DNA from: Naegleria gruberi
Lineage: Eukaryota
Length of the DNA: 64,000 bases
Direction: 5' to 3' (one strand)
Assembly: GCA_000004985.1 (NCBI GenBank)
Contig: GG738848.1
In this document: in pieces, positions 27,182 through 62,400 of the stretch
How the letters are laid out: every line of letters begins with the position of its first letter
Position numbering within the stretch: the stretch's first letter is position 1
Translations under genes and position numbers: made by a program
The notes under the pieces: generated by a model
What the model was told of the DNA's origin: nothing
The model's input: only the letters and a program-made list of their open reading frames with translations
Databases searched by the model: none

Positions 27182-29173
27182 ATGAGCAAGGGAAGAGACG
27201 CAATTCTTAGATGGTGCCAACGTAACTCTTATGGTTATGATGGTGTAGAAATTGATAATTTTGATTCATCATTTGCCAGTGGTTTGGCATTCTGTGCTCT
27301 CTTGGACAGTGTAAGTTGTTTCTTTCACAAAATTCTAATTCTAGGTTTTTAAAATTTTAATCAATTTGATGATTTGAATTTTTCAATTTTAATATTTTCA
27401 AATTCTTGTGATGATGGTGATAATTGTTTTTTAATTTTTTACTCTGTGTAGCAACGTCCTGATCTTCTTAAGGAATCTGGATTGGAATGGAGCGACTTGG
27501 TTAATGATTTTAGCAGAAATGAAAGATTAGAATGGGCTTTCGGAAAGGCTGATGAAATTGGCATTCCAAGATTGTTGGACCCAGAAGATGTTGATGAACA
27601 AAAACCAGATCCAAAGGTTGTAATAACCTATCTCTCTGGAATGATTCGTTTCTTCCAGGAGGATGATGGTGGATCAGAGGCTACCATTGATAGACCAACT
27701 GGTTCTTTCGCTGCTTCCATTGATGATTTAATTAATGGTGGTGGAAAGAAGAAGCCTTCTGGTGGTGATCAAACACCTCCACCATCATCAGCTAAGGTTC
27801 CACAATTAAAGGCTACCGGAAAGTCTGATTCAACACCACCTGCTGCCTCTCCTAGAAAAGATGTACCAGTTGAAAAACAATTGGAAAATCTTGAAAAGAT
27901 GTACCAAAAGGGTTTACTTAACGAAGAATCCTATGAAAAGAGTAAACAAAAGATTATGGAAAAGATTAAGGAACAACAAGCCCAATTGAGTGCTAGAAGT
28001 GATCATTCTTCAAATTCCGAAACTTCATCCAATTCATCATCTTCTCAACAAACAACAAGTGAAGATAAGACACAAAAGGCTCTTGCCAACTTGCAAAAAC
28101 TCTATGAAAAGGGTACTTTATCTGAAGAAGAATATAAGAAGGCAGTTGAAAAATTGAAGGCTAAATCAGCTCCAGTTACTACAAGTGAAGTCAAACCACA
28201 ACAAACAACTGAACAATCATCATCTTCATCTTCAGTTGATACATCAAAATTCTCTCCAGAACAATTGAAGCAATATGAAAAATTGACCAAGATGCTTCAA
28301 AGTGGTTTATTAGGAGAAGCTGAATATCAAAAATCATTGAATAATTTAATTGATAAGGTCAACAAGTCTCAACCAAGTACAAGCTCACAACAAGAATCTC
28401 CAGTTGTCACCAAACAACCAAATCCACTCATTGAAAAGATTCAAGATACCAAAAAGTTGAATAATTTGAAGACTCTCCTCAACAAGGGTGTCATTACTGA
28501 AGAAGAATTTGATAAATCGATCACTAAGCTCTATCAACAAGAACAAGAAAAGCAAAATTCTGCTCCTTCCACTCCTCCACCAACTGCTGAACCATCATTT
28601 GATGGTGTTGATATTGATAGTTTGAAGGAAGAAGATTTTGATGAAAAGACTAAAGGACGTGTTAAGGCCATTGAAAGAATGTACAAGGCAGGTCTCTTCA
28701 AGGATAACGAATATGCCCATGCTAGAAGAAAGGCCATTATGCAAGGTCTTCAAGAAGCTGGTGGTAAATTCACTCCATCTCCTGTTACTGAAACAAAGGA
28801 ACCTGAAGTCAAGCCAGTTGCTGAAGAAAAGCCACAAAAGAAGAGAACTAACAGTGTTTTCATCCAACAACCTAATCTTCCAAAGGAAATTAATGCTGAT
28901 GTTGAGGATTATCGTATTCTCTATGAAAAGTTGTTGAAGGAACACGAAAAATTGGCAGCTGACTTTGATGAAATTCAAGAAGATTATGAGGAATTGAAGG
29001 AACAATTATCTACTGTCTATGATGAAAAGAAGAAGGATGTTGAAGTTCCAGAAGAACTCAAACCAGTCTTGAAGAAGATTGGCCTCAAGAAGAAGCAATC
29101 TGGTAAGAAATTGGATGTTGTCATTATTTATTCTTCTGATGATTCTCTCGTCACTGAAAAGGTCACTCTTTAA
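27182..29173 (+). CDS. Calponin-homology (CH) domain protein followed by five SHOCT-like repeats. Two exons: 27182-27310, 27452-29173
   Basis: CH domain …ILRWCQRNSYGYDGVEIDNFDSSFASGLAFCALLDS|QRPDLLKESGLEWSDL… is split by a 141-nt GTAAGT…GTAG intron. Five ~30-aa repeats follow: LENLEKMYQKGLLNEESYEKSK / LANLQKLYEKGTLSEEEYKKAV / LKQYEKLTKMLQSGLLGEAEYQKSL / LNNLKTLLNKGVITEEEFDKSI / VKAIERMYKAGLFKDNEYAHAR. They are separated by S/T/P/Q linkers, and a C-terminal coiled coil follows. Confidence 0.72.
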
Positions 29174-30396: not shown

Positions 30397-30975
30397 TACT
30401 AACATTTAAGATCCAATTGTATAAACTGGAGATGTTTAATCTTCAAAATTTAGGACAATAATTGCCTCACTTTCTCCAATAACTTTTGTACAAAAGATAT
30501 TGAAGAAACAGCCATAATAAAAAATGAATCATCAAAATCTCTAATGGAATAGTTGAGTAATCAGGTAAAAATTGAGAAGTATAAAACTGCAGAGGTCACT
30601 TCCGGGTTTTTTACAGCAATCACCTTCCATGACCCTAACCTGCAGCTCGAGGCATTCTTGGGAAGAGAGTTCGGTTTGCAGTATGATTGCTACCAAATCA
30701 TTCATCCAGTGATCTATTAGAAAATTTATTGAAATTAATATTTTTTACTTTTGGTTGCAAAATATTTGCAAATATCAAAAATTTGCGTAAATTTACGTTC
30801 ACTTCGCCAATAGGAGACTAAAGTCTACAACACAAGAATCCCTTGAAGATAATTCAACAATCTCCATATACGCCTTGTACATTTTCACCTTTCCAACATT
30901 TTCCAATTGAAATATGGATTATTTAACAAGTGAACCATTACCACTTAGACCCTTAGATTCTAGAAATAGGATAAG

Positions 30976-32904
30976 CTAAGGAAGCAAACTATTGGTAGTG
31001 TCTTTTCTTTCAAACCATGTACTCTTAATCCAAATTATTCTATTACAAATAACAGCAATTATCATGGCAATACATCCCAAAGACCAAATTACTTCTCCTG
31101 TAATTTCCAAAGATCTTTCATTAACTAAAAAGCAACCTGAACCAATTGTGAATAATAAACTACTTGTAATATTCAATAAATAAGCAGATAAATCAATTGA
31201 CATGAATGTAAAACATTTTACATTGATATCCATTCCATTCCTAGCAGATTTAATGATATCCACTTGTTTTACAATATATTGAATTATTGAAACAATTAAA
31301 TATGAAATAGCTCCAACAGACCAATTGACCTCTGCAATAATTACAATTAAAATAGGTGGATTCAACATGTATAACGAAGATCCAATTGTAAAAGTTAATC
31401 CTCCCAAAATTAAAAAGAAATCATTCACCATTTCCAAAATAATCATTTTCAATGGAGGTAAATCAGGAGGTCTATATGAACTAATATCTTGATGTAATTC
31501 ATGCATTTGATCTTTTAACCTTTTAGAACTTTCATTTTGTAAATTTGTAATTTCCTTCACTTTCTTCTCCCATCTGAAATGTCTAATTAAATTAATGACA
31601 TCAACCAAAGCCTTTCCCAATGGTCCAACAAGGAATAAAACTGATCCTATAATAAACAATAATATTCCCGAGAAGAAGAAGGTTACATTATTAGCAATCA
31701 ATAAACCACATCCAGCCACGAACAATGCTGCTCCAATCACAAACGAAATATCCAACAATGCAAAAGCAGCAATATTTAACCCTCTCATCATTATCAGAGT
31801 AGAGTTCTTCTGCTGATGATTCCCAACGAGAACAAGAATGGAAGAGGAAGGAATTTTGGAATTTTTTTCTCTTGTTTTGTTTGATTCTTCGTGTTCTTGT
31901 TTGATTGTTGTTGTAATATTCTGTTGGTGCTTCTTATTGTTGTTGACGATGGTCTTATTACTCCTGTGGAGAATTTCATGATGGAATTGTGAATGTTCAT
32001 CCTTGTTATCATCATGCTGAAGGTTATGTAGAAGGGAATTAATTTTCGAGTGTTCATCTCTGATCGATTGAAGAAGATCGAGTGTGCTATTGTTGTTATC
32101 TACTGCTGTTGAGGTTGACAATTGTTTGAGATTGTTTGAAGAGTTGGGTTGTTCTTGATGATGGAGATTAGTAAGAGAACCATCCAATGTATAGATTGAG
32201 AAGGTCTCTCCTTCTTCACTTGTTGTTGAAGTGCTACTATGACTTGAATTACTATAGGAAAGTGCATGGTGATACTTTCTTTGGGGAGGTTCTAATATAA
32301 TTTCATTGTTGTTGTCTTGTTCTTCATGATGTGATGATGATGAATTCATTACATTTCTTGAATAAGAAGGTTGAATAGAAAATGCTTCCATGTGAATAGG
32401 TTCAACCAATGTTTCCTCCAATTTACCAATTATTGATTTCTCATAATGTTGATTATCACATCCTGATGGAGGTGTAATATCTGGTTGTTGCTGATGATTG
32501 TTTTTTTCACAAAGAGAGGAAATAATTGATGGAGAAATCTTAGACAAATCAATTGTACTTGCATTCAGCATTTCAATATTCTCTCCAATAATATTATCTT
32601 TAGTTTCTAATGCTTTTTCTTGACAAGTTGAATCGCCTTGTTTCTTCTGCATGTTGTTGAATGGGTTTGTTTGCATTTTCTTATTAATTTGGTTGTGAGA
32701 GTCTGGCAACGAATCATGCAGCTGCTGAGAAGACATTCCAATAAATTTACCTTTCGTATAATTATTTTCTTCTGCATCCTCAATAATGTCCACAATAACA
32801 ACACTATTGCTTGAAGATCCGTGGTCGGCCGAATAGGAGAAATGTTTCTCTTGATTATTTGTCTTGCTATTTATGTGACTTGTTTTGAAATTCATAAAAT
32901 TCAT
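30976..32904 (-). CDS. Membrane protein with N/Q/S-rich N-terminal half and C-terminal six-TM region built from three internal 2-TM repeats (642 aa)
   Basis: Repeated units FVIGAALFVAGCGLL…FFSGILLFIIGSVLFLVGP, FLILGGLTFTIGSSLYML…WSVGAISYLIVSII, LLFTIGSGCFLV…IWSLGCIAMIIAVI. ATG 32902-32904. Confidence 0.55.
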   Translation of the reverse strand: MNFMNFKTSHINSKTNNQEKHFSYSADHGSSSNSVVIVDIIEDAEENNYTKGKFIGMSSQQLHDSLPDSHNQINKKMQTNPFNNMQKKQGDSTCQEKALETKDNIIGENIEMLNASTIDLSKISPSIISSLCEKNNHQQQPDITPPSGCDNQHYEKSIIGKLEETLVEPIHMEAFSIQPSYSRNVMNSSSSHHEEQDNNNEIILEPPQRKYHHALSYSNSSHSSTSTTSEEGETFSIYTLDGSLTNLHHQEQPNSSNNLKQLSTSTAVDNNNSTLDLLQSIRDEHSKINSLLHNLQHDDNKDEHSQFHHEILHRSNKTIVNNNKKHQQNITTTIKQEHEESNKTREKNSKIPSSSILVLVGNHQQKNSTLIMMRGLNIAAFALLDISFVIGAALFVAGCGLLIANNVTFFFSGILLFIIGSVLFLVGPLGKALVDVINLIRHFRWEKKVKEITNLQNESSKRLKDQMHELHQDISSYRPPDLPPLKMIILEMVNDFFLILGGLTFTIGSSLYMLNPPILIVIIAEVNWSVGAISYLIVSIIQYIVKQVDIIKSARNGMDINVKCFTFMSIDLSAYLLNITSSLLFTIGSGCFLVNERSLEITGEVIWSLGCIAMIIAVICNRIIWIKSTWFERKDTTNSLLP

Positions 32905-33603
32905 TTTGGCTATTGGATGAGAACAGTTAGTAATTTGATAAGAAGTGATTTAATATATATTGAAAAGATGATGAAAAGAATGTTCAGAAGTAATGATTGC
33001 AATAAAACGTTACTAAGTAACTTTAATAATAGATTCTGAGAGAGATATAAACAACATGAGCAGTGTGGGTAACAAGGTTTAATGTTGCCACACTTTTTAT
33101 GAGATATATATTTGACAAGAGAATAACCAACAGACAACCCAAGCTCTATTTTTAATGTTATCACAACAGGTTCTTTTGTTGGTAGTAGTTGGGTGTGGGT
33201 TTGAGTATTGTGAATTAGTTGAATTGGGAGTTTGTTGTTTCTAAAGTGCTCTGGGTGATGTCTTGATACTGTTTTATTAAATTGAAGCGTTATTGGATAA
33301 TGAAATGAATTTTCATGCCTTATCTAGTTTCTTTTAATGTAAATAACTGAAGAATTTGATTTAAGGATTGACTGTATTCAATCTGAATACTTGATAAATA
33401 TAATATCATAAATAACGAACTCAATAGGTACTGTAATAATCTTCCTATTGGTTCCTTAATATTACTTCCTTTTTACCACATCACATTTCAAGATCTGTTC
33501 ATTGTTCAAGAGTCTTTTCATAAATCATCGATAGGAAGCTATGAACTTTTAATCAAAAAAAAAGAATTTACATTGCCAATTCTTCTTCTATAACGTCGTC
33601 ATC

Positions 33604-36600
33604 ATGTCCCAACAACAACAACAACAACAGGAGGAAGAAATTGATCCAACATTGTTGAATTATAGAAACTTGACATTGTATGTAAAAAAGGGTGAAAGTA
33701 AGGATGTTGTCTCGGCATTGATCAGAGAGAATGAAAGTTCAAGTCAATCATCCTCTTCCGAAGATATTCAAAATAATGTGGAGGAGGCTTTTTCCAAGAC
33801 TGTTGATGAATCTACATTCCGAATTGAAGAATTAGATGAGGAGAGTTTAGAAAAATTATTAGCAGAATTATTAAAAGATCAAGATGATCAAGAAGTGTCA
33901 ATTCAACAAAATTATCTAATGAGAGAACAATCACTAAAACCTCCAGAACCTGGTACTGTTGAAATTAAACAACAAGTTGAATTTCCTCCTAAATTAGATC
34001 AATTAGAAACTGCCATAAATTCTGTAGGAAATTATCTGGCAGAAAAGGCAACAGAAAACAAGAAACAAGAAACAAACTTTAAAATCATTAGATCTGTTCC
34101 AACTGGAAAGCAAAATTCGGAAATAAGTTCAGTACCATTTATTTCCATTACATTTAGTCATGATATGATTGAAGAATTTGATGGAGAACCAAAATCATTT
34201 GAAGAAATTGATTTTGTTGAAATTAGTCCAGTCACTGAAAATGTTAAGGAAGGAAAATGGAAATGGATTGGAACTAAATCTTTAGTATTTCAACCAAGAT
34301 TCAGATTTGATAGATCTAATGAATTCACTTACAAGATTCTGAAAGAAAAGACCAAATCTGTGTTTGGTAACACGATTGAAGAAGATTTGGTGGTCACTTT
34401 CAAAACGCCAACATCACGCACTCTCTCAGTTATTCCTTCGTCAACAAGTTTCCCAATTTCCGAACTTCCTTTCATTTTCCTTCAATTTGATCAAGATATG
34501 GATAAGCAAAGTGTTCTTGCACATTTGTCAATAACAGTTTCTTCTAAATCTATTGGTGTAGAAGTATTAGAAGAAACATCAATTATTTCCAAAATGTTGG
34601 AAGATTTGGATTATGCTAAAAAGTTTCCATATGTTTTTGGATCATACAATAGATGCCTTCAAGGCACATATGACCCAAAGAGGTGTATGTGGCTGAAGTT
34701 GCATATTGCCAATGAAACTTTACATGCTGGAAAGGATTATCCAAAAATTGGATTAGGAGAATATTTGAGTATTTTATTGAAAAAGGGGTATAAGAGTTTG
34801 GAAGGACCAATACCGTCAGCTCATGAATACTCGACAGGTATTTATGGTTATTCCAAAATGGCAGTCAACTATCATTACCCAAAGAAACATTTATTTTATA
34901 ATGATATTTATCCAGGATGTTCATTTACTTTCAGTTTCAACAATCCAATTGATTTGGACAAGATAGAAAGTATTGAAACATTTGTCCAAGTTGAACCAGC
35001 CATTAAAAATTATAAGGTAACTTGTAATGGTAATAGTATTGTAATATCTGGTGATACACTTGCTAGAGAAAAGTATCGTGTGAAAATATTGAAAGGTGTC
35101 CCTGATATTTATAATCAAAGCTTGGAAAATGAATATGAAGCAACTTTTGAAGTGAGCGGAGAAGATAGAGAATTCAACATGACTCTTTCAAACTCAACAA
35201 TTATGCCACCTTGCTTGTTTGATTCACAAGATCCTTTTCTTTACTTTGATTCTGTAAATATTCAAGAAACTCATGTTATTATTAATCAAGTTGATCCTGT
35301 AGAAATGTACAAGGAAAGCTCTTTTCCCAAGTTAGCTGCAAAAACAGTATTTAATTCATATGATAATTATGATTACTTTGATTGGTATCCTCGTAAACCT
35401 CACAAGATTGGAAAGGAAGTTTTTGATCAAAAGGTAAAACCTGATAACTTTGTAAAAGATAGAACAGTTTCAACCAAGATTATGTTATCTCAATATCTCC
35501 AAAATGGAAAGACTGGATCTCTACTTGTTCACATCAAACCAAAGAGATCTATTTTATACAACTTATTTAATGGATACGAAACCAAGTGGATTCAAGTTTC
35601 AAATTTGTGTGCTGATATTATTAGTATCACAGGAGAGAAGGCAGCAGTTTTTGTTACTGATTTCTCAACTGGAAAACCAGTTCCAAATGCCACAGTAACT
35701 TTATCCTATTCTACCAATAATACACCAACGAAAGATGAAGACTTGAATATTATCTCAACAAGTGAAACAACAAATGAAAATGGAATGGCCTTCTTTTCCT
35801 ACAGTCGTAATTATCACACTGTTTTGATCATTTCAAAAGATCAAGATCAAGTTGTGTACACAAATCCAACAATTTACTCTCATTCAATCCGAACCGACAC
35901 AATTTCTGCTCATATATTTAATGATCGTGGTCTTTACAAGCCAAATGAAAATGTACATATCAAAGGTTTCCTTAGAGATATCAAGTACAATTATGAAAAG
36001 GGTTCTGAGAACTATGGCACCTATTCTATTAGAGAACCATCCACTGAAACTAAAGCTACCTATGAAGTTCAGGATTCTCGAGGTGTCAAATATTTGGATG
36101 GAAAGATTGAATTGAGTCCAAGTGGATCCTTTGTATTGGATTTAACTGTTCCTGATAATGCTAATTTGGGTTCTCATTCCTTGACAATTTGCTATGGATC
36201 TAGAAAATTTAACCACACTTTCAATGTTCAAGAATTTAGAACAAAAGAGTATACAGTTTCTAGCAGCATTATTCCTTCATCTGATAAGGTGGATTTGTTT
36301 ATTGGTGACAAATTGGTAAATAAGGTCAGCGCAAAGTATTATAGTGGAGGTGGCTTGTCCAATTCCCAAGTTAACTACCAGTTCAACACAGAACCTGCAA
36401 CCTTTAATCCAGAAGGATGGAGTAATTATGTCTTTCAAGATACAGATCTCAGAAATAATTACAAGCTCAATACTCTTATTGAAAATATGAAATCCAAATA
36501 TCAAGTATATCAAAGCTTTAACAGTGCAACTGACCCAAGCGGAGATGATCATGCCTTTATGCAGTTGTGGGATCCAGAAAAAATAGTAACTGGTCCAATA

Positions 36601-39600
36601 AGCATTAATTGTAAAGCAAATGTTCAAGATATTAATAGACAAACACAAGGAACATCTAGTGAGGTTATTCTCCACTCTTGTAAATACTATGTTGGTATTC
36701 GCTGTACAAAGAGAGTTGTTATGAAATCTGATGAAAATATTGACTGCTTTTTCATTGTTACAGATATTAGAGGTAAAATTGTAAAGGATATTCCAATATC
36801 TGTAAAATTGGTCAAGTTTGGTTATGATTCTAGGGGTTATGAAAGATGGGAAACCACTAAACCAATCAAGGAAATTAATCTAACCTCTCAAAGTCAACCA
36901 CTTCTTCATACATTTACCCTCAATGAAAACACAAATGATACTGCCTATGGAGAGTATGCAATTTTGTGTGAGGTAAAAGAGAGTGAAAGACCAAAATTTA
37001 GATCAGGCATTAACAGATGTAGTATTCCAATTCGTAAATTTGGATTTAAAGAACACTTGACATCAAAGGGATACACTTCACTCAGCACCAATTCACTTGA
37101 GTTAATTTCTAATAAGTTTGAAACTGATGAATACGAGCCAGGTGAAGAAGCCAAAGTTTATATTGTCTCTCCATTCAATGGTGAGTGCTCTGGATTTGCC
37201 TGGGTTTTATGCAATGGATTAATCAAAGAGGAGAGATTTGACATTACTAACGGTATCCATGAATTGACCATTCCAATCAAGAAGGAATACAGACCTAATA
37301 TCCAAGTAAGAGTTCAATTATTTGGTACTGAAAATTATATTGATGTTGATGACAAGCCAAGAGTTAATCCAGCTCATGCTACTGGATCTCTAACCCTCAA
37401 TATTTCCAAAACCGAGCATGAACTCACTGTAACTGTCACTCCAAAGGACCCAATCTTGAGTCCAGGAAAAGAAACTGATGTCAGCATTCTCGTAAAAGAT
37501 AAGCAAGGAAACAATGTACCAAATTGTGAGGTTTGTTTAATTGTTGCTGATCAAGCTGTTTTAGATATGGCCAATTATTCAGTTACCAATCCAATGTTTA
37601 CCTTTGTTTCTAACAATTCATGCTCTGTTGATTTCTCTTCGATAAGAGATCGAGTAAGATATTGGTTATATCCAAGAAAAAATCAAAGAGATGAAGAAAT
37701 CTTAGCAATAAGACAACAGGCACTCCCTTCTTCAAATTTGTGTGCATGTGATTTAGCTGGTTGCAGTGGAGGCCGTTCGCGTAAATGCTGTGAACAATGT
37801 GGCGAATGTGACGATATGGCTCAAAAGGAATGCAAACGTGAAAAGTGTTGCAAGAAGTCATGTGGCCTTGCATGTTTTTCTAGAAGGTGTTGTAAAAATA
37901 GTAAGGATTCATATGATGGCTCACGATCCCAGATGCCATCTATGGATGATAGAAATGGTGTATTTGAAATTCGTTCCAACTTTAAACCAGATGCTGCTTT
38001 TATTGGATTTGCTCAAACTGATGAAAATGGATTTGCAAAGCTTGATTTCAAATTGACTGACGCTCTCACAAAATTCAAAGTTACAGCTGTTGTAAATGCT
38101 AAACAAGACATGTTTGGTATTGGTAATTCTGCAATTACTACCAATTTACCTATTGCAGTTAGACCATCACTTCCAAGATTTTTGAATTATGGAGATTTAT
38201 GTGATTTGACCTATGTTTTACAAAATCAAACAGATTCTGATTTGACTCTTTCTCTAGTATGTAATGTATCAAATCTCAGAATATTCAATGGAAAGGATAA
38301 AAATCAACGTAAGAAGGGATATACTGTTGTGATACCAGCAATGGGAAGAAAAGAAATTAGAATTCCTGTTCAAGTACTCAAATGTGGTAAGGCTCTTATC
38401 AATCTTGGAGTTAGAGTGGTTAGAGCCATAGCCAAGAATCCTGAAAAGCAAGAACTTGCCGATGGAATGGTTGGATGGTCAGATGCTGTCAAGAATGATT
38501 TCAAAGTTTTTACTCCAGTAACCAATGAAGCTTTTGCAACGTATGGAGATGTTAGTGCAGAAAGTGAAACTATTGTACAACCAATTTCACTTCCATCCAA
38601 GAATCTATTGGCACACTTTGGTGAATTCACTGTTAGTACTTCAACAACAGCTCTATCTACATTGACTGATTCTCTCATTTATCTCTATTCTTATCCATAT
38701 GAGTGTAATGAGCAAATTGCATCAAAGATTTTAGGTATAGTTTGTATGAAGGAAATGATCTTACAATTCTACACACCTGAAGAGCTTCAAAGATTGATGG
38801 AAATTTCTGGAGAGGAAGAAGTTAACACATTCATTAATTCCAACCTTGCTAGATTATTTGATCGTCAAAGATATGACGGAGCATTCTCATATTGGGATAG
38901 CAAGTTAATTGGAGACCCATTCTTAACATGTCATGTAGCTCTCTGTTTTGCAAAATGTAAATCTGAAGGTTACAAAATCCCAGATCAAATATTATCAAGA
39001 ACCAAATCCATTTTGAAGAATATTTCAAGTTTATTCTTCTTTGGATTCCTTTGGCCAAGATGTATTAAGGATACAATCAAATCATATGCCTATTATATTT
39101 TATCATTGTTAGCTGAAAGTGAATCTGATAAGGGACAGGTAATTTCTCTGTGTGAAGGAATTCTTGATCATTATAATAGCATTACTGAATTGACACAAGA
39201 ATTATCCCCAGAGACTGCTGCCTACCTTGCTATGGCCATTCATAAATGTAAGAAGGAACCAGTAACAGAAGAAAAGAAGGGCTTCTTTGCTAAATTTACT
39301 AAAGAAAAGATAACTATTCATCAATGGTTGGATGCTATCAAATCATACTTTAAGGAAAATGTAACAATTGACTCTGGAATTTATGCTCACTTTATTACTC
39401 GTTATGAAGATAATGAACTCGCTCAAATGGTTATGTTGCATTCAAATACCAGAACTGATGCTGTTGTTTTGGGTTGTTTGATGGAAATTGATAGAGAAGA
39501 CAGTAGTGATATTATTCAAAAATTGGTGAGAAGTTTGTTGGCTGCCAGAAATGCAAACAGATATGGTCGTTGGTATAATACTCAAGAAAATTCCATCTGT

Positions 39601-40404
39601 CTCATGTCACTCACTGATTATTTCAAGATATTTGAGAAGGAAATTCCAGATATGAATGTCAATACTTGGCTAGTAGATAGTACTAGACCAGAGGAAACTG
39701 TATTCATGGGTAATCAATCTTGGAAGGGAAGAAGTAGAGAAAAGAAAACTACATCATTACCACTTGTTGCCTTTGTTCCACGAAGTGATATTGAAAAGGA
39801 AGTTGTTAATCCAAATGAAAGTGATTCCAAAAAGTCATTCTTGTTGACAAAGAATGGAGCTGGAAGGCTTTACTATAGAATTGCTCTTTCATACACTCCT
39901 GAAGAATTGGTTCTCAAAGCTCTTGATAAAGGATTTTCAGTTTCCAGAGTTTACGAAGCAATTACCAACCCAGATGATGTCAAGTTTGACAAGTCAACAA
40001 AAACATGGAAGGTAAAATCAGGAGAATTAGTCAGAGTAACAGTTACGATTTGCAATCCAACCAGAAGATACAATGTAGCCATGGTTGACAAGATGCCAGC
40101 AGGTTTCGAAGCTGTCAATCCAGAACTCGATACACAATTTACTGATTTTGGAAATAGTGGCAATGAAGAAGATTTAGCAAACAAATACTATTACAAATGG
40201 TTCGAAAATCAAAACATTAGAGATGAAAGAGTTGAAGCATTCAGCAGAATCTTATATGAAGGCTCCCACGTTTACAGTTATATATGCAGAGCTACTACGA
40301 TTGGATCATTTGTTTCTCCTCCAGCTTATATCGAAGAAATGTACTCTCCTGAATGCTTTGGAAGAAGTAAGACTGAGTTTGTGCAAGTTTATGATAAAAA
40401 ATAA
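33604..40404 (+). CDS. Giant alpha-2-macroglobulin / thioester-containing-protein-like protein (2266 aa), single exon
   Basis: Thioester-like PYECNEQ (CxEQ) followed by TED-type RQRYDGAFSYW. Many MG-like beta-rich repeats upstream. A Cys-rich insert at 37735-37915 sits where a bait region would be. Poly-Gln N-terminus with no signal peptide. Confidence 0.65.
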   Translation: MSQQQQQQQEEEIDPTLLNYRNLTLYVKKGESKDVVSALIRENESSSQSSSSEDIQNNVEEAFSKTVDESTFRIEELDEESLEKLLAELLKDQDDQEVSIQQNYLMREQSLKPPEPGTVEIKQQVEFPPKLDQLETAINSVGNYLAEKATENKKQETNFKIIRSVPTGKQNSEISSVPFISITFSHDMIEEFDGEPKSFEEIDFVEISPVTENVKEGKWKWIGTKSLVFQPRFRFDRSNEFTYKILKEKTKSVFGNTIEEDLVVTFKTPTSRTLSVIPSSTSFPISELPFIFLQFDQDMDKQSVLAHLSITVSSKSIGVEVLEETSIISKMLEDLDYAKKFPYVFGSYNRCLQGTYDPKRCMWLKLHIANETLHAGKDYPKIGLGEYLSILLKKGYKSLEGPIPSAHEYSTGIYGYSKMAVNYHYPKKHLFYNDIYPGCSFTFSFNNPIDLDKIESIETFVQVEPAIKNYKVTCNGNSIVISGDTLAREKYRVKILKGVPDIYNQSLENEYEATFEVSGEDREFNMTLSNSTIMPPCLFDSQDPFLYFDSVNIQETHVIINQVDPVEMYKESSFPKLAAKTVFNSYDNYDYFDWYPRKPHKIGKEVFDQKVKPDNFVKDRTVSTKIMLSQYLQNGKTGSLLVHIKPKRSILYNLFNGYETKWIQVSNLCADIISITGEKAAVFVTDFSTGKPVPNATVTLSYSTNNTPTKDEDLNIISTSETTNENGMAFFSYSRNYHTVLIISKDQDQVVYTNPTIYSHSIRTDTISAHIFNDRGLYKPNENVHIKGFLRDIKYNYEKGSENYGTYSIREPSTETKATYEVQDSRGVKYLDGKIELSPSGSFVLDLTVPDNANLGSHSLTICYGSRKFNHTFNVQEFRTKEYTVSSSIIPSSDKVDLFIGDKLVNKVSAKYYSGGGLSNSQVNYQFNTEPATFNPEGWSNYVFQDTDLRNNYKLNTLIENMKSKYQVYQSFNSATDPSGDDHAFMQLWDPEKIVTGPISINCKANVQDINRQTQGTSSEVILHSCKYYVGIRCTKRVVMKSDENIDCFFIVTDIRGKIVKDIPISVKLVKFGYDSRGYERWETTKPIKEINLTSQSQPLLHTFTLNENTNDTAYGEYAILCEVKESERPKFRSGINRCSIPIRKFGFKEHLTSKGYTSLSTNSLELISNKFETDEYEPGEEAKVYIVSPFNGECSGFAWVLCNGLIKEERFDITNGIHELTIPIKKEYRPNIQVRVQLFGTENYIDVDDKPRVNPAHATGSLTLNISKTEHELTVTVTPKDPILSPGKETDVSILVKDKQGNNVPNCEVCLIVADQAVLDMANYSVTNPMFTFVSNNSCSVDFSSIRDRVRYWLYPRKNQRDEEILAIRQQALPSSNLCACDLAGCSGGRSRKCCEQCGECDDMAQKECKREKCCKKSCGLACFSRRCCKNSKDSYDGSRSQMPSMDDRNGVFEIRSNFKPDAAFIGFAQTDENGFAKLDFKLTDALTKFKVTAVVNAKQDMFGIGNSAITTNLPIAVRPSLPRFLNYGDLCDLTYVLQNQTDSDLTLSLVCNVSNLRIFNGKDKNQRKKGYTVVIPAMGRKEIRIPVQVLKCGKALINLGVRVVRAIAKNPEKQELADGMVGWSDAVKNDFKVFTPVTNEAFATYGDVSAESETIVQPISLPSKNLLAHFGEFTVSTSTTALSTLTDSLIYLYSYPYECNEQIASKILGIVCMKEMILQFYTPEELQRLMEISGEEEVNTFINSNLARLFDRQRYDGAFSYWDSKLIGDPFLTCHVALCFAKCKSEGYKIPDQILSRTKSILKNISSLFFFGFLWPRCIKDTIKSYAYYILSLLAESESDKGQVISLCEGILDHYNSITELTQELSPETAAYLAMAIHKCKKEPVTEEKKGFFAKFTKEKITIHQWLDAIKSYFKENVTIDSGIYAHFITRYEDNELAQMVMLHSNTRTDAVVLGCLMEIDREDSSDIIQKLVRSLLAARNANRYGRWYNTQENSICLMSLTDYFKIFEKEIPDMNVNTWLVDSTRPEETVFMGNQSWKGRSREKKTTSLPLVAFVPRSDIEKEVVNPNESDSKKSFLLTKNGAGRLYYRIALSYTPEELVLKALDKGFSVSRVYEAITNPDDVKFDKSTKTWKVKSGELVRVTVTICNPTRRYNVAMVDKMPAGFEAVNPELDTQFTDFGNSGNEEDLANKYYYKWFENQNIRDERVEAFSRILYEGSHVYSYICRATTIGSFVSPPAYIEEMYSPECFGRSKTEFVQVYDKK
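33608..33632 (+). repeat. CAA trinucleotide run encoding poly-Gln
   Basis: (caa)7 at the start of the A2M-like ORF. Confidence 0.9.
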
Positions 40405-48432: not shown

Positions 48433-50514
48433 TTATTTTCTATTTGATAGGATTTTCTTTACAGTTTTGTTATCTGAACTCAAAACGAGATCAGGAGCAA
48501 TGTTCAGAACAATATCACCAGTAATTCCTTGTTTTACAATATAATTCTCTTGCGCTAATTTTTCAGTACTATCTGCAATTTCAGTAAAGTTACTTCTGAA
48601 ATCGTCATCAAGTATCTCTTCATATTTTCTTCTAAATTCCTCAGAGGTTATTTCTCCATTAAACTTTTCCTTCTCAGATGCAACACAGCAAAGTATGACA
48701 AGTACTTCAATTGTTGTCTGACCTAATCCTTTTAGTATATCCAATTTTCTGCTAAATTGTGTATTTACAAGTTTTATCAGCTTACTTGTATCCAAGGTAT
48801 GAGCAATTGGAATCAAGTGAGTTTCCACAAATGATTTAATTTGTCTCATATCATGTTTGTTCTTTAAGAGACCCATCATTTTCTGAATCATATCTGCTGA
48901 AATCTTGTGCTTGTATTCATGAACAAGGATTGAGGTAATATCATCCTGTTCATACTGATTAAATGCCAAAAAGTTAATACCTGGATTCTTTGGTGGATCG
49001 TTGGTGATGGCCAATATTATTACTTTAGCCACTCGAATTTGTTCCAGATATTTGTTATGCTTGCTATATGAAAATTCATCAAGTAAGATGAGTGCTGGTG
49101 TGTGCTTCTTATTGAAATACTCCAATAACTTGGTGATTCTCTCTTGCTTCTTTGTTGAATCTGTTGATCGAGTGTAAACTTTTTCATAGAGCCTATATAT
49201 CAAATCAGATGCTTTTTCTGAACCAGCTAAATTCAATTGATACTTTTCCAAACAAGATGCATCAAATACTGAAGTTGTTACCATTGTTTTTCCTTGACCA
49301 TTAGTTCCGTAAATAAAAAGCACATTCTTTTGGGGATTAAAATCTTCATAACAGTTTTGGATAAAGTTAATTATTGTATCACATTCCTGCTTTCTTGAGA
49401 ATACTTCAACGTTTTGATTAAAGATTTTTGGTGATGATTTTTGTTTCTTTAGAGAAGATTCAAAAGGATGTTTCTCTTGTTCTTCTTCTCTTTCTGTGAC
49501 TGGAAGCTTAGCAATTGTCTTTCTTCTTGCTTGTCTTTGTTTTTTTGGAACTATTTCAATCTCGTCTTCAGATAGTAATGGTTCTTCAGTTTTCACAACC
49601 AAATCTTGTGAATCCTCAACTGGTTCAATTTTGACTTTTTGTCTGCGTCCTTGCCTAGATTTAACAGGAACAGGTTCTAATACTTCTTCTTGTGGTTGTT
49701 GCTGTATCTCATTAACAATAGGCACACTAGTTGAGGGTGAAACAATTTCTTGTGAATCTTCGGCTACTGTTGGAGGTACTGTTTCGTCTTTCGTTTCTGG
49801 AGTGATGCTAATAGTAGGTCGGGCTTGCCTCTTCTTTGTTCTAGTTTTAACAGATGCATGAATTACAGGGGATTGAATGTTGTTGGTAGTAGTATTCGAA
49901 TTGGATTGTTGTGATGAACTAGTTTCTTGAATTGGAGATTGTCTAACTAGATGAGTTTGAGGAGGGGAAAGAGGTGAAATTGATGGAGGCATCATTGGAA
50001 TTGAATGTTGACTATTGCTGTATGGACTTTGTGATAATGAGCTTTCGACTGGCATATTTCTCATTGGTGTTGAAAAGCTTCTAGAGGTTGTTGGACTGAA
50101 AAAGTATTCTCTTGTTTGATTAACAGATGTAATATATTGATCTCGATCCATAAGATCGATTTCTCTTTGTTCTGGTGGTAGTAATAAGAGTTTCTTCCAC
50201 AGCAGTCTATATTGAGTATTAGAGGTAATTTTAATGTCCTTGTTTGTTTTAATATCGTGAAAAACAATCACAAATTTACTCCTATCAACATTAGGATCAT
50301 CTATCACTTCCGACATTAAAAATTGTCTTGTTGATTCAATATCGGAATTTTCTTGTAATAGAGTTGTAGTTACACCATAATTTAAACACGATAGAGTGAC
50401 TTCCATTTCATCGGTAACACTATCATCAATCATGGAATGATCGGACAGAAGTGATGAGGAGAAAGAAGAGGTTTGTCTCCTTGTTGATGTATCTGTGATG
50501 TGTTGTTGACTCAT
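48433..50514 (-). CDS. Cdc6/Orc1-family AAA+ replication-initiation ATPase-like protein (693 aa)
   Basis: Walker A YGTNGQGKTMV and Walker B ILLDEFSY. Many S/T-P sites in the N-terminal half. C-terminal winged-helix-like region. Confidence 0.62.
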   Translation of the reverse strand: MSQQHITDTSTRRQTSSFSSSLLSDHSMIDDSVTDEMEVTLSCLNYGVTTTLLQENSDIESTRQFLMSEVIDDPNVDRSKFVIVFHDIKTNKDIKITSNTQYRLLWKKLLLLPPEQREIDLMDRDQYITSVNQTREYFFSPTTSRSFSTPMRNMPVESSLSQSPYSNSQHSIPMMPPSISPLSPPQTHLVRQSPIQETSSSQQSNSNTTTNNIQSPVIHASVKTRTKKRQARPTISITPETKDETVPPTVAEDSQEIVSPSTSVPIVNEIQQQPQEEVLEPVPVKSRQGRRQKVKIEPVEDSQDLVVKTEEPLLSEDEIEIVPKKQRQARRKTIAKLPVTEREEEQEKHPFESSLKKQKSSPKIFNQNVEVFSRKQECDTIINFIQNCYEDFNPQKNVLFIYGTNGQGKTMVTTSVFDASCLEKYQLNLAGSEKASDLIYRLYEKVYTRSTDSTKKQERITKLLEYFNKKHTPALILLDEFSYSKHNKYLEQIRVAKVIILAITNDPPKNPGINFLAFNQYEQDDITSILVHEYKHKISADMIQKMMGLLKNKHDMRQIKSFVETHLIPIAHTLDTSKLIKLVNTQFSRKLDILKGLGQTTIEVLVILCCVASEKEKFNGEITSEEFRRKYEEILDDDFRSNFTEIADSTEKLAQENYIVKQGITGDIVLNIAPDLVLSSDNKTVKKILSNRK

Positions 50515-55558: not shown

Positions 55559-58500
55559 TTAAATGTGATACAATTCGTGAATCATGAAAAAGTATTCAAT
55601 TGGACAATATAATTTGAGTTTTCGTACCATCTCTTCATCTAATTTGATCGTTATCAATAAATCTCTACATTGATTGATAATTTCAAATAATTGTTCAATA
55701 ATGAAAGGTTTTAAATGTTCATGTTCCATCAAATCAATAAAAATTCTCATTCCTTTCAAAATTTCATCAGAGGCAACAGAATTTAAACTCAACGAGCTTA
55801 TAGTTCCATTACTATTGTTATTGGAATTTTGAATCAGAGAAGTTTCATAATTATAAGAATGATTAATGGATTCATTCTTCAATGCAGTAATATCATTTAG
55901 AACATTAAATCTACTTGTTATTGTTTCTAATCCTAAACGAACAATTTGATGTTCCATACATGGTTGTATTAAACCTTTCAATACTTGATTAGGAAAATAT
56001 GAAATATGAGTTGTAACATTAGAATATCCAAAATTTAAAGAATCAACAATTAATGAAGATGCAGCACTAATATTTCCAAATAAACTTGTTAAGGTTGATT
56101 TACGTCTATTGTTAGATTGTCCAGATGATCCAATAGTATTATAATTACCAGCATTGCCACTATTATTTGTCTGTTGTTGAGAATCTTGAGAATTAATATT
56201 ATTATAAATTGAATAATTTGGAAACATGGCACTTGTTGGTGAATTCATTCCTCCTCCAACTCCACCACCCATAAATGTACCACTATTATTATTGCTATTG
56301 CTTGTAGTATTAGAAGTAGGAGGATATAACAAGTGAGAAAGTTGAACTGTCCACTCACTAATATTCACACCACTATTATTCATTCCACCAACACTACTAA
56401 CATTACCAAAACTTCCACCTATACCACCTATATTATTATTACTTGAATTATTATTACTACCACCACCTATATTACCAATATTATTATTATTACCAGTATT
56501 AATATTATTATTACCAGTATTATTAATATTATTATTATTATTACTTGAACCACCATTAAAAGATTGTGAAGTTGTTGCAATTAATCTTTTTAAAATTGTT
56601 TGTTCAAATTCTTCTTTTTGTTGTTGATTAGTTCCAAATTTAATGAAATGAAAAATGTGATTTAATAATTTTTGAGTATTTGAATTTAAAATAAAAGAAG
56701 AAATTCCATCAATTAATTGTCTTTCAATAATAGTATTACTAAATAAAGATAAAGTATTAACATTTGATAAATTTTGATCTTTTCTAAAAATTTCATTTAA
56801 ATAAAAACAAGCATAAAATCTAATTATAAAAGGTTGATTTCCATTTTGAATTAAATCCATAAATCTTTTTATAACTCTTTCAGATGAAATTGGTAAAATT
56901 GATAAAACTTTAAAAGTTTTAATAATTAATTCATTATTAATTTCATAATTATTTCTATTATCATCATGAATAAATAATAATAATAACATTGATAAATTAT
57001 TTAATAATTGTTCATGTAAATTATTTTTAATATTTCCATTTTTAGTAGTAATATTACTATTTATAGTATTATCATTATATTTATAGTAATTAATTAAATA
57101 TTCTTTCATAATTTTTAAATAATGTTTATAAACAAGTAAAAGTAAAATTGTTTGTTTAAATTCAGATAAAGGTTGTTGTGAAATTCTAATTAAAGATTTA
57201 AATAAAATTGATAATAAATCACAAAATATTCTTTCTATAATAATTGGAACTCCTTTACATGTAATTGTATAATTTCCATATATAGGTAGTAATTTAGTTA
57301 CTATATATAGACATGATAAATGTTGTTCTAAATTAAAATTTTGATCAAAATAATATAATTCTATATTTGTAGGTATTGAAGCAATTCCTTTTTGTTCATT
57401 ATTATCTAATAAATTTGGTAATAAATATGAAATACATAATTTTAAAATATGTGAAATTTTACCATTTGAATTTAATTCTAAAAATTCAAATTGATTTAAT
57501 AAATTTTTATGTGAAATTTCCATTTCTGTATTATTATTACCATTTTTATCAGAATGAGAAGAAGAACAAGATGATGATGATGAATCTGAAATATCATCTG
57601 AAATATCATCTTCATCTTCTGAATTTACTATATTTGTTAATAAAATTGTAATTGATTTTGCTAAATTTAAAAATCTTGGAATTAAATAATTTTTTTTAAT
57701 TAAAATATATTCCCTTTTTAAATATTGATCATTTTCAATTTGTAAAATATATTGATTATTATTAATATTATTAAATAAATTATTTTGATTATTTAAAATT
57801 CTTTCCATAATTATTAATAAATGAATTTCCTTATTAGTAGAAATAGTTTCAATTAATTTTACAAAATTTAAATCTAAAGAATTTAAAATACAATTATCAA
57901 TAATTGATAAAATACTTGTTTTAGAATTACTATTTATAGTAAAATTAAAAGGTACATAAATGGAAATTAATTTACTCATGTAAGATTCATCTTGTTCAAA
58001 AATATCAATAAATTTAATTAAATGATCATAAAATAATTTGTTAAATTCAATTGAATTATTATAAATTTTACCTAAAAAATTAAAATTAATTAATTTTTTA
58101 AAATCATCCATAATTTTATCTAAAATTAAATTATCAATAATTAAATTTAAATTTAATAATTGTAATAAAAAATTAGAACAATTAATTTTTTCATTATTTT
58201 TATAATTTTTAAATAAAAAATTATATAATTGATAAACAATTTTATAACTATCATAACTTGTTTTAGATTCCAAATTTGGAGAAATAAATTCATCTGGATT
58301 TATATTTTGAATTATATTAATTAAAGTTAAAATTAAATTAAATAAAATTATAATTCCTTCATCATTTTTATAATTATTAATTAAAATTAATAAATCATTA
58401 ATTGACTTTTTTAGTAATTTCATATAAACATTTAAAATTTGTCTATTTTGTATAATTTCTATATTTGAATTTAAAATAATTAATAATAAAAATGGTGTTG

Positions 58501-59418
58501 TATTATAAATATTTAATAATAAATTACTCATTTGTTCAAATAAATAATTTAATTGGCAATGTTCAATTAATTTAGTAATTCCAAAACAAGTATGTACATA
58601 ATTAGAAATATTAAAATTTGTAATATTAAAAAAATCAGAATCATTAAATTCACTTAAATTAATTGGTTGTGATAATTTTAAAGAAGGTGTAATTGACCTT
58701 CTAAAAATAGATTTTGTTTTCTTTTTTTCTAAATTTATAATTAAATCTTCAGAAATTTTCTTATTTTTTAAAAAATCACTTAAAATTTCTATAAATGTAT
58801 TTGAATTTAAATCATTATTATTAAAATAACTTGTTTCATTTTTAATTAAAATTCTTAAAGCAATTTGTTGAATACTTGTATATTTAGAAGTAACTGCCCT
58901 TTTTAGATATTCTCTATATATAGTTTCAATTTCTTGTATATCTTTTAATTCTCCATTTATATTATTAAGAACATTACTTCCATTTATATTATTATTATTA
59001 TTATTATTAGTAGTATTATTAGTAGTAGTGGATGATGATGATGGTGATGAATTATTCCATAAATTACCACTATTAGATTTATTAGATGATAATCCATTTA
59101 AAATACTACTTGTATGATTATTCATACTATTATATTGTCTTGAATGTTGTTGTTGTTGTTCTTTCTTATTTCTTATATTCATTATATTCATTATACTATT
59201 ATTACTATTATTATTATTATTAGATCTACTACTATTATTTTTAAAAGAATTAGAAGTAGATGATAAATTATCAACACTATTTGAATAATTTGTTGTTGAT
59301 GATGAAATTTGTCTAAAAGAAGATAATTCATTCTTTCTTCTAATTTGATTTGTAAATTGTTCAAGTTTATCCAATGATAAATTTCTAATTAAAATTCTTT
59401 CAATAATTAATTCTTCAG
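55559..59418 (-). CDS. C-terminal portion of giant Asn/Ser-rich protein-kinase gene (continues across the assembly gap)
   Basis: 1271-aa ORF, open in frame right up to the N-run. Asn/Ser homopolymer tracts and a Leu-rich helical region. Confidence 0.6.
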
Positions 59419-59468
59419 NNNNNNNNNNNNNNNNNNNNNNNNNNNNNNNNNNNNNNNNNNNNNNNNNN
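59419..59468. other. Assembly gap (run of 50 N) inside a coding region
   Basis: Literal n characters. The ORF is open on both flanks. Confidence 0.99.
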
Positions 59469-62400
59469 AAATTGTGGTAAATATCCTAATAATGGAAATT
59501 GTTGTGATGCAATTTGATGATCATCTTCATAATATTGTTGATAAATAAAAACTAATTGTCTCCAAATTAGGCGATACAATTGTGGTCTTTCAGAAAAGAA
59601 ATCATCGGGTAATTTTCTAAACTTTTCAATTTTGGAAACTGATAAATATTCTGCTAAATCTAACATGAATTCCATAAATTCATTAGATGTTAATATTTTT
59701 TCCTTTTTTGTAAATTGTTCAATATTATTAAAGGAAATTCTCTTTCTTTCATCACTTTCTTTTAATGAAAGTCTATTTCCACTACTATTATTATTATTAT
59801 TAGTAGTAGTAGTATTAGTAGTAGCACTACCTCCTCCACTATTACTATATATACTTGAATTTGAGATAACACCACCACTTGAAGAATTTGTTTGATTGTT
59901 AAATAAATTCAAATTCTTTGAATCTCTTTTACCCATTGAAAATCTTAAACTTCTACTTCTGACACGTCCACCACCAGCACCAACACCACCACTAGATGTT
60001 GGTGTTCCACTACCACCTACATAATTAGAAGTAAAAACACCAGTACCAGCACCACCACTATTAGTATTAGTATTATTTGGACTAATACTGAGTGAATGAG
60101 CCATAGCAGTATTGGAATCAGATGAATTTGGTATTAAAGTGGATGGAGTATTAGATGCTGAATTAAATACATCACTATATTGTTGTTCAATATTAGCAAA
60201 TAAAGAAGGTGTTACAACAACAACAAGTGAATCAGTTGATGAATCATAATCCATATGAGTTGATTGTTGTTGCTGCTGTTGTTGTTCAGATCCTCTTCTA
60301 AAGAATGATTGTGAATGATGATGTGATGATTGATTCATTCCAATACTATTATTACTATTAACATTTCCAAATAAATAATTATTAGATGCCAAATTACTTG
60401 GTAATAAATTCAAATCAGATGAAATGTAAAATTTGTTTAAAAATTGTTCTAACATCATTCTAATTGGTATTTCATTCATTTCAATTAAACTATTACTAGT
60501 ATTAGTATTACTATTAGTAGTATTAGTATTATTACTAGTATTATTAGTAGTAGATTCAATATTTTCCTGTTGTTTGAGTGCAAAATAATGAGCAAATGAT
60601 GGAATTCTAGCAATTTCCAAATATCTAAAATCATATTCATTCAATTCATTAAATAAAGTATTATATAAATTTAATGATCCACTATAATTCTTTTTATCCT
60701 TATTCTTTTTAACATTTGAATTGGCATTAATTGAAGAAGAAGAAGTGGATGATGAAGAATTTGATTGTCCTGAAACAATATTTCCTAAAATATTTGATAA
60801 ATTAGTAGAAATGAATAAATTAGGAGGAGGTGGAGCACAATTTTGTAAAAGAGATGAAATATTATTAATACCCATTGATTGAATATCAATAGTTTTTAAA
60901 ATATAATTATAATGTTGTGATTGATTAAAATTTGGATCTAATGGATGTTGTTGTTGTTGCTGAGTAAAATTTTGATTTTCAATAATATAAATGGTATTAT
61001 TTGTTAAATTTGATAATTGTGACATGATATTAAAATATTCTTGACCTTTAAAATGTTGAAAATGATCAAAAATTAAAATACATTTACCATTTAAAATTAA
61101 TTGTTTTAAATATTGTTGAATTTCCTTATTAAATTGTAAATGTTGTTTTTGTAAATTGTTTGCAGTTGATGAATTATTTCTAGAATTAAATCTTGGACTT
61201 TGTGTAAAACTACCAAAATTAGAATTTGAATTTTCATTAAATAAAATATCATTTGCTAATTTTATAACATTTCCAAAATAATATTCAAAACATCCTTGAA
61301 TTATTTTATCTATAAAATCATTTATATTTGGCATATTTAATATATTTCTTAAAGATACCATAATTGGTATTTTAAATAAACTATTAGAATGATTTGATAA
61401 TAATTGATTTAATAAATTATTATTACTTGCCATATTAGAAGAATTACTAGTATTTAAAGTATAAATATGTTCCATATAATATCTATGTATAGATGAAATA
61501 AAAAATGATAAATCTGAATCTGTAAAATTACAATTTCTACAATTTAAAACATAACATATACAAAGTGATGAATATTTGTTATATTGAAAATTATCATTTC
61601 CACCTCCTCCATTACCATTTCCACTATTATTACTTCCAATACTACTATATCCACTACTACTATTTACACTATTAATACTATTATATCTATTATTAGAAGA
61701 TTGTGTACTAAATCTATTATTATTATTATTATTATTATTATTACTGATATTATTACCGATATTATTGATATTATTATTGTTAATACTATTTCTATAATCG
61801 AATGAATTTGAATTATTTGAATCAATTAAATGACTTGATTGAAATAAAAGATCAAAATTTGTATTTCTAACACCAATAACAGCACCTCTCTTTCTTGTTT
61901 TAAAATTATCACCATCATTAATATCCATTGAAAATACATTCATTGACATTCTATTAGATGCTATATTAGAATAGCATGATAATCCAATTGTAGAAGAAGA
62001 AGAGGATGATGATATTATTGAATTAGATTGATTATTCATATTAATATTATTGGATTGATTCATATTAGTATTATTAATATTGGATTGATTGATAGATGTT
62101 GAAATGGTATTATTTAAAAATGGTGAATTAAATAGTGGTGAATTATTATTAGCAACACCTGAAGAAGAATTAAATGAAGAATTTCTTGATATTGAAATTG
62201 GTAATGAAGATGCAATATTTGATACATTAATATTACTTATATTTGTTGTTGTTATTGAAGTGGTAGTGGTGGTATTATTATTATGAATATTATTATTATT
62301 AATATTATTAATATTACTATTTATAGTAGTATTATTATTATTATTATTATTTAATAAATTATTTAAACTTGATGAATGTGAAAGTTTTCTTGAAGAAGAA

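Follow-up and report, generated by a model that had tools for sequence, protein, structure and literature searches.

A leaderless bacterial-type thioester alpha-2-macroglobulin with a cysteine-rich bait loop in Naegleria gruberi

We analysed a 64,000-nucleotide stretch of Naegleria gruberi DNA (contig GG738848.1 of assembly GCA_000004985.1, hereafter the window), and in particular the gene NAEGRDRAFT_45966, whose product is a bacterial-type thioester alpha-2-macroglobulin (A2M). The gene consists of a single uninterrupted open reading frame (ORF) that starts with ATG and encodes 2266 amino acids (aa) followed by a stop codon, exactly as described in the original prediction, which had been made from the sequence alone (Table 1). 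The product is 100% identical to N. gruberi XP_002681967.1 (D2V1U6), which is labeled in the databases only as a "predicted" or "uncharacterized" protein, and begins with MSQQQQQQQEEE. The presence of an in-frame stop upstream of the ATG makes a 5' extension of the ORF impossible without splicing. The guanine-plus-cytosine (GC) content of the gene (32–36%) is the same as that of the flanking DNA, and the neighboring ORFs in the window are ordinary eukaryotic genes (Clp1, an RGS-domain protein, a myosin TH1/PH protein and a kinase); therefore, this is a resident Naegleria gene and not a contaminant. A synteny comparison found no counterparts of these neighbors at the locus of the N. fowleri homolog FDP41_007782.

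The protein had been proposed to belong to the A2M/C3/TEP superfamily. Matches in Pfam and in the Protein Data Bank (PDB) bear out this assignment but not a metazoan type, as the bMG10 and Big_5 domains and an N-terminal region resembling MG0-NIE-MG1 are all of bacterial type. The profile search detected significant matches to the MG2, A2M_BRD, A2M and bMG10 families (Table 1), whereas a scan against NCBIfam matched no family. When the protein was compared with PDB sequences by phmmer, bacterial A2Ms from Salmonella and E. coli were the sole matches, the best being the Salmonella A2M (SaA2M; 4u48, E=2.7e-21).

AlphaFold2 models cover two fragments of the protein, aa 1–720 and aa 1101–2266, the latter with a mean predicted local distance difference test score (pLDDT) of 75.6. 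In the N-terminal model, Big_5 is the first in a chain of beta-sandwich domains that extends to about aa 700, and the best structural match was the MG0-NIE-MG1 fragment of the E. coli A2M (4zjg, E=1.6e-10). The second model shows beta-sandwich domains, a helical thioester domain and a beta C-terminal domain. It matched native SaA2M (4u48) with E=6.9e-49 and a query-normalised template-modelling score (TM-score) of 0.54, and the fragment of the E. coli protein from macroglobulin (MG) domain 7 to the C-terminus (4ziu) with a target-normalised TM-score of 0.79. Native SaA2M and the native E. coli protein (ECAM, also YfhM) were the best matches, and the protease-activated E. coli forms gave lower TM-scores (0.33–0.37). 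The Pfam set and the model matches to 4zjg, 4u48, 5a42 and 4ziu thus describe the architecture of a bacterial thioester-type A2M.

With ECAM/YfhM and SaA2M (4u48, 5a42, 4ziq, 4rtd) the window protein shares the order N-terminal immunoglobulin-like/MG domains, MG2, bait-region domain, disordered bait, A2M, helical thioester domain and bMG10. It also shares with them the position of CxEQ and the YxY, RDDR-like and EXMY motifs, and its fold is nearest to their native conformation, although identity in the structural alignment is about 16% and the window protein is about 600 aa longer. This excess, which the original prediction had pointed out for typical A2Ms, holds with respect to ECAM/YfhM (PDB chains of 1614–1647 aa) but not with respect to the protein's own bacterial relatives, which measure about 1950–2100 aa, so that the excess over them is only about 240 aa. 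In addition to the disordered N-terminal region, it is made up of extra bait-loop length and of some ten short insertions.

The CNEQ motif occupies the thioester position, as the pairing of YPYECNEQ with YPYGCLEQ of SaA2M confirms. The second signature that had been noted, RQRYDGAFSYW about 55 aa after PYECNEQ (aa 1698–1704), starts at aa 1754, which is 53 residues past Cys1701. In the alignment, the column of the thioester Cys is occupied by Cys in 42 of 46 bacterial sequences; CxEQ is kept in bacterial relatives and in 10 of the 11 heterolobosean members of the family, all 11 of which have the EEMY motif. In the native form of SaA2M, Met1625 and Tyr1626 of the EXMY motif cover the thioester (PMC4498604), and Fyfe et al. 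described how a Tyr/Met/Tyr pocket and RDDR contacts shield it until the bait is cleaved (PMC4498604). All the elements of this pocket, Y1697-P-Y1699, RDER and EEMY, pair with their SaA2M counterparts. The presence of CNEQ also separates the window protein from the YfaS/MagD-type A2Ms, which have no CxEQ and hence no thioester; some metagenome relatives carry the automatic label "YfaS". The heterolobosean member without CxEQ is P0124 (Willaertia magna ABK040_013894, 2273 aa, from the long subfamily described below), in which SNEH replaces the motif while EEMY and the architecture are retained. Given this paralog, some family members may act without a thioester.

Table 1. Position of the A2M gene in the window and of the domains and motifs of its product.
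Feature	Residues (aa)	Coordinates	Strand	Basis
Complete single-exon coding sequence, NAEGRDRAFT_45966, bacterial-type thioester alpha-2-macroglobulin	1–2266	33604..40404	+	ORF list, 100% identity, Pfam
In-frame stop, 17 codons 5' of the ATG		33550..33552	+	Reading-frame inspection
N-terminal region: poly-Gln, acidic, predicted disordered, leaderless	1–140	33604..34023	+	AlphaFold2, hydropathy
Big_5 bacterial Ig-like domain	157–268	34072..34407	+	Pfam PF13205, E=5.4e-8
MG2 macroglobulin domain	769–875	35908..36228	+	Pfam PF01835, E=4.1e-15
A2M bait-region domain (A2M_BRD)	1172–1322	37117..37569	+	PF07703, E=1.8e-16; aligns with SaA2M 753–926
Bait loop, disordered, hypervariable, longer than the bacterial one	~1348–1462	37645..37989	+	Between stretches aligning with SaA2M 926 and 1000
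Cysteine-string core, 14 Cys in 53 aa, LCACDLAGCSGGRSRKCCEQCGECDDMAQKECKREKCCKKSCGLACFSRRCCK	1379–1431	37738..37896	+	Composition
A2M domain	1466–1550	37999..38253	+	Pfam PF00207, E=4e-11
Helical thioester domain (TED)	~1683–2010	38650..39633	+	Model all-helical, fragment residues 583–910
CNEQ thioester motif, Cys1701...Gln1704, after Tyr1697/Tyr1699 (YPYE)	1701–1704	38704..38715	+	Aligns with YPYGCLEQ of SaA2M
bMG10 C-terminal macroglobulin domain	2110–2250	39931..40353	+	PF17973, E=5.7e-30, profile positions 1–131 of 131
RDER, counterpart of the RDDR motif of the C-terminal MG domain	2206–2209	40219..40230	+	SaA2M alignment
EEMY, EXMY motif	2244–2247	40333..40344	+	Aligns with VESMY of SaA2M

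The reported lack of a signal peptide was reproduced by Kyte-Doolittle hydropathy, which found no hydrophobic stretch in the window protein: the maximum 15-residue mean within the first 120 aa was 0.22 and the maximum 19-residue mean over the whole protein was 1.27, so that the protein has no signal peptide and does not span a membrane. By the same measure, no hydrophobic leader was found in any of 11 full-length heterolobosean homologs from five species (N. gruberi, N. fowleri, N. lovaniensis, W. magna and Percolomonas cosmopolitus), one of the ORFs being transcriptome-derived. The window protein and these 11 homologs thus lack the export signal or anchor of the bacterial thioester A2Ms. ECAM and SaA2M have a signal peptide or lipobox, a periplasmic location and a Cys-free bait, whereas the window protein is leaderless, has a Cys-rich bait and belongs to a eukaryotic host. 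An N-terminal hydrophobic leader above the hydropathy cut-off was detected in 115 of 142 relatives from the group of about 2000 aa, and many of those under the cut-off still show lipoprotein-type leaders or visible lipoboxes.

The first 140 aa of the window protein, with pLDDT values below 50 over aa 1–77 and 88–140, align through LKPPEPG (P113, P114 and G117 conserved) with the linker located directly after the signal or anchor of the bacterial proteins. As this disordered N-terminus still aligns with the bacterial linker, the eukaryotic proteins look like bacterial ones from which the export signal has been removed. The starts of the N. gruberi paralogs and of the N. fowleri ortholog coincide (MS..., followed by IDPTLL, IDSELL or LDPTL). 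The leaderless state is a genuine trait of the whole clade and not an annotation gap.

The second departure from the bacterial proteins, the most unusual feature of all and one that the original prediction had not mentioned, is found in the bait. The loop occupies the position of the SaA2M and ECAM baits, and pLDDT values of 26–33 across aa ~1345–1451 predict it to be disordered, both as expected for a flexible bait, but its composition, with 14 Cys, is atypical. Between the boundaries that enclose 41–109 residues in bacterial relatives, the window protein has 112 residues, and the Cys count of this segment is zero in 38 of 40 bacterial relatives; P0150, a 41st "bacterial" sequence with 15 Cys, was excluded from the 40 because it belongs to the leaderless clade. 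The cysteines form clusters (CKKSC, CC, CCC, CxC and CxxC, with Lys, Ser and Gly) flanked by Lys/Arg, in a composition that we take to resemble that of metallothioneins and cysteine strings. In Naegleria, six of the seven members carry 11–17 bait Cys, both subfamilies being represented among the six, compared with 2–5 in Willaertia and Percolomonas; the leaderless metagenome relatives P0150 and P0187 have 15 and 19, in runs such as CCRKCCCNCCNCCCKCC. Among the sequences examined, cysteine-string baits are confined to the leaderless clade.

This loop is hypervariable. The baits of the two N. gruberi paralogs are 34% identical, compared with 70–87% for their flanks, and the positions of the cysteines differ between them, Cys richness alone being retained. 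A Pfam scan of four Naegleria bait cores matched no family at E<=10. A metallothionein or anaphylatoxin module is accordingly not supported, both for the lack of a Pfam match and for the Cys pattern that differs between paralogs. The cysteines might be palmitoylated and so stand in for the lipid anchor that was lost, they might form a trigger that responds to metal or redox state or, should the protein be secreted, they might make up a disulfide module. Cys is also abundant in the protein as a whole, at 2.1%, compared with 0.91% pooled over 15 neighboring ORFs and 0.3% in the bacterial relatives, and most of the extra cysteines are conserved within the long subfamily only. Overall Cys content was set aside as a clue to location, since a reducing compartment and new disulfides fit it equally well.

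A word-indexed search identified an N. gruberi paralog with 74% identity to the window protein (NAEGRDRAFT_59848) and proteins of N. fowleri and N. lovaniensis with 51%; the closest relatives outside the Heterolobosea are bacterial proteins of about 2000 aa, with about 28% identity over 93–99% of the length. An exhaustive HMMER search with aa 1101–2266 returned 12013 relatives at E<=1e-3. The heterolobosean members, of 2047–2381 aa, include FDP41_007782 (2266 aa) and FDP41_008308 of N. fowleri, C9374_010671, C9374_013396 and C9374_010557 among three or four N. lovaniensis genes, three W. magna genes (ABK040_013894, ABK040_000474 and ABK040_000516) and a P. cosmopolitus transcript. Two adjacent N. 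lovaniensis genes, C9374_013412 (P0125, 1190 aa) and C9374_013413 (P0273, 891 aa), look like one A2M gene split by annotation.

The phylogeny against bacterial A2Ms that had been suggested as a check was carried out with neighbor-joining trees on Kimura distances, with bootstrap. The heterolobosean sequences form one well-supported clade within the bacterial group of about 2000 aa: together with three leaderless metagenome proteins they grouped in 100% of bootstrap replicates, and support was 98.5% after the addition of five more such proteins. This leaderless clade is placed inside the radiation of leader-bearing bacterial proteins. The simplest history suggested by these relationships is one old transfer from a bacterium into an amoeboflagellate ancestor, after which the gene duplicated and gave rise to two subfamilies, one long and one short. 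The metagenome A2M relatives of the heterolobosean clade (P0150, P0187, P0183, P0196, P0197, P0133, P0136 and P0130; L006) are leaderless and enriched in Cys. CxEQ has been lost in P0196 and P0197, and P0130 lies on a contig of 36% GC beside a eukaryote-like gene. The family probably extends to uncultured protists.

Among the bacterial relatives, the Chloroflexi protein CVU39_19540 (P0007), from a metagenome-assembled genome, and HJT28376.1 from Pyrinomonadaceae are uncharacterised A2M-family proteins of about 2000 aa. Relatives of the P0007 type have Big_5, the N-terminal linker motifs, CSEQ and EEMY in common with the window protein; they differ in having mostly a transmembrane or lipoprotein leader, about 0.3% Cys and Cys-free baits of 41–109 aa. 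Pairing with the gene for penicillin-binding protein 1C (pbpC) is, like the export signal, a defining feature of the ECAM/SaA2M kind; no pbpC was present at the window gene, nor was one found beside two close bacterial relatives. With the metazoan A2M, C3, TEP and CD109 proteins the window protein shares the superfamily fold and the thioester chemistry (fold matches to A2ML1, CD109, TEP1 and C5 with E values of 1e-35 to 1e-42). None of them, however, was matched by sequence in the PDB, and the window protein has bMG10 and an MG0-NIE-MG1-like region and lacks the metazoan signal peptide, eight-MG body and receptor-binding-type C-terminal domain.

Another protist protein on a bacterial-type (COG2373) A2M-like scaffold is CPRas2 of Dictyostelium, which carries an inserted circularly permuted Ras GTPase domain (PMC2430557) and exceeds 3000 aa. 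Its GTPase insert suggests that it may act inside the cell. CPRas2 probably represents a separate acquisition, because it is not among the best 150 relatives of the window protein. The paper on this Dictyostelium protein was the only one found in literature searches on Naegleria macroglobulins and on the accessions and locus tags of the family, and protists are absent from a 2026 review of A2Ms. In the literature found, the family is missing; it is labeled only as "uncharacterised" or "A2M domain-containing".

Taken together, these data lead us to regard the window protein as probably a leaderless covalent protease trap of bacterial type, cytosolic by default, whose gene a heterolobosean amoeboflagellate ancestor most likely acquired from bacteria and which then duplicated. 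The known activity of bait cleavage and covalent capture is the most likely one because all the sequence features of the trap are present and conserved across the clade. In such a trap, the thioester domain and the C-terminal MG domain would together enclose the CxEQ thioester until a protease cuts the bait loop; cleavage would then release the thioester domain, and the exposed thioester would form a covalent bond with the protease. The eukaryotic clade has lost the signal or anchor that directs the bacterial proteins to the periplasm, so its members would by default remain in the cytosol after synthesis, and in Naegleria the bait has turned into a hypervariable cysteine string. As no leader is present, the cytosol is the presumed default location. 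Bacterial A2Ms such as ECAM and SaA2M are routinely produced in the cytoplasm of E. coli with an intact thioester, so a cytosolic thioester is chemically plausible. From the sequence and the models we infer thioester formation, protease trapping, the cytosolic location and the role of the cysteines. The more specific proposal that the protein captures cytosolic proteases by means of its thioester, and that the bait serves as a palmitoylated membrane anchor or as a metal- or redox-gated trigger, is tentative. Candidate targets inside the cell would be, for example, proteases of intracellular bacteria, of giant viruses or from leaking food vacuoles.

Several points weigh against a cytosolic trap of this kind. 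The thioester is lost (SNEH) in one Willaertia paralog and so appears to be dispensable in some members. Support for the family at the mRNA level is limited to the Percolomonas transcriptome ORF; look-ups of transcripts for the exact products of the window gene and its paralog returned no record, and the matching N. fowleri records were genomic contigs. Moreover, the leaderless state is compatible with unconventional secretion, and loops so rich in Cys are more usual in modules that are secreted and held by disulfide bonds. Thiol and amine nucleophiles of the cytosol could attack the thioester, although the shielding pocket is conserved. Finally, the tree is based on neighbor-joining with Kimura distances and not on maximum likelihood, and it fixes no bacterial donor lineage.

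The original prediction had raised the question of a missed upstream signal-peptide exon, in which case the true protein would be a conventionally secreted A2M. Some Naegleria genes contain introns, and Cys-rich loops are typical of secreted proteins. When every ATG-started ORF of the plus strand from 30900 to 33603 was scanned, the sole intergenic signal-like candidate was a short hydrophobic ORF at 33155–33241 (+), about 450 nt upstream, in a G/T-rich stretch (MLSQQVLLLVVVGCGFEYCELVELGVCCF). It was rejected as a signal-peptide exon for lack of a counterpart upstream of three N. fowleri and N. lovaniensis members, and its resemblance to a signal peptide is best read as a chance match. At two of these loci, FDP41_008308 and C9374_010671, the previous gene ends only 150–175 bp before the start; at the third, FDP41_007782, the closest N. 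fowleri homolog, the 442 bp of upstream DNA hold no hydrophobic ORF. No signal-like mini-exon was found upstream of the three (L002, L003 and L008), which have in-frame stops 4–7 codons upstream. Since, in addition, the 11 leaderless homologs were annotated independently in five species, one of them from a transcriptome, and start positions coincide among the N. gruberi paralogs and the N. fowleri ortholog, a missing 5' exon is very improbable. That the sequence comes from contaminating bacteria, or is a defunct remnant of a DNA transfer, has a negligible probability: the gene is intronless and outside the Heterolobosea it is most closely related to bacterial proteins, with about 28% full-length identity, but its GC content follows that of its flanks, it has eukaryotic neighbors on a 712-kb contig, and the 6.8-kb ORF is intact, with orthologs and paralogs in five species that conserve the motifs.

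The remaining alternatives concern where and how the protein acts. A leaderless protein might still reach the outside by unconventional secretion, vesicles or lysis and there trap proteases of prey or competitors, with a disulfide-bonded Cys string. The Cys-rich bait lies, as we assume, at the position of the disulfide-bonded anaphylatoxin domain of C3, C4 and C5, and for the known A2M/TEP members the site of action is the periplasm or the outside of the cell (PMC4498604, PMC8712716). We nevertheless consider this unlikely, as none of the papers found mentions these proteins, the bait is predicted to be disordered, and its Cys positions differ even between paralogs that are 74% identical, a poor fit to a fixed disulfide fold. 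A use other than inhibition, with the thioester secondary, also seems rather improbable; the protein might, for example, tag targets covalently, act as a scaffold, or bind metal or respond to redox state through a metallothionein-like loop. Such a use would agree with the presumed likeness of the bait to metallothioneins and cysteine strings and with the Willaertia paralog that has no CxEQ yet is otherwise intact, and the GTPase insertion in the Dictyostelium bacterial-type A2M provides a precedent for repurposing in a protist (PMC2430557). However, CxEQ, YxY, RDER and EEMY are kept in about ten members at 40–50% identity, which points to selection on the trap, and the bait loop matches neither metallothioneins nor any other Pfam family.

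Within the A2M/complement superfamily, the known sites of action of thioester proteins lie outside the cytosol, in blood, haemolymph, at cell surfaces and in the bacterial periplasm, and here a conserved eukaryotic clade has the full set of thioester-trap features with the export signal gone. If these proteins do stay in the cytosol, covalent capture by means of a thioester is possible within eukaryotic cells. Cytosolic capture, if true, would be a first for the A2M/complement superfamily and would imply a cell-autonomous, complement-like defence in a protist. The family is also a clear example of a large bacterial defence protein acquired and diversified by a protist lineage, which includes the human pathogen N. 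fowleri with at least two copies. Among bait regions, the cysteine string represents a novel type. If its chemistry were understood, be it acylation, metal binding or redox sensing, a previously unseen mode of A2M triggering or anchoring could come to light. The intracellular location and the role of the cysteine string, which are the most interesting parts, are also those that we infer.

Other ORFs of the window deserve mention. Divergent from the A2M gene, a 642-aa ORF at 30976–32904 (-) contains two YrhK-like domains, YrhK being, as we understand it, a bacterial membrane-protein family. At 27482–29173 (+), a calponin-homology fragment is found in one 563-aa ORF together with repeated short domains of the SHOCT, SHOCT_2 and GvpG-like types, which are mostly bacterial; here, too, a eukaryotic gene may contain a module of bacterial origin. 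The 1174-aa ORF at 2279–5803 (+) joins a calcineurin-like phosphoesterase (Metallophos) to an AAA_23/SMC_N ATPase head, as if an SbcD-SbcC or Mre11-Rad50-like pair had been fused into a single chain, and weak AAA_22 and NB-ARC matches in the 693-aa ORF at 48433–50514 (-) suggest a STAND-type NTPase. Beyond about 56 kb the GC content falls abruptly from about 30–35% to 18–23%. Two adjacent ORFs of 1271 and 1411 aa at 55559–63650 (-) are very rich in Asn and Ser (16–18% Asn), a composition that looks unusual for the N. gruberi genome. They are probably parts of one large intron-containing gene, because at the start of the second, of 1411 aa, only the C-terminal portion of a protein kinase domain is found.

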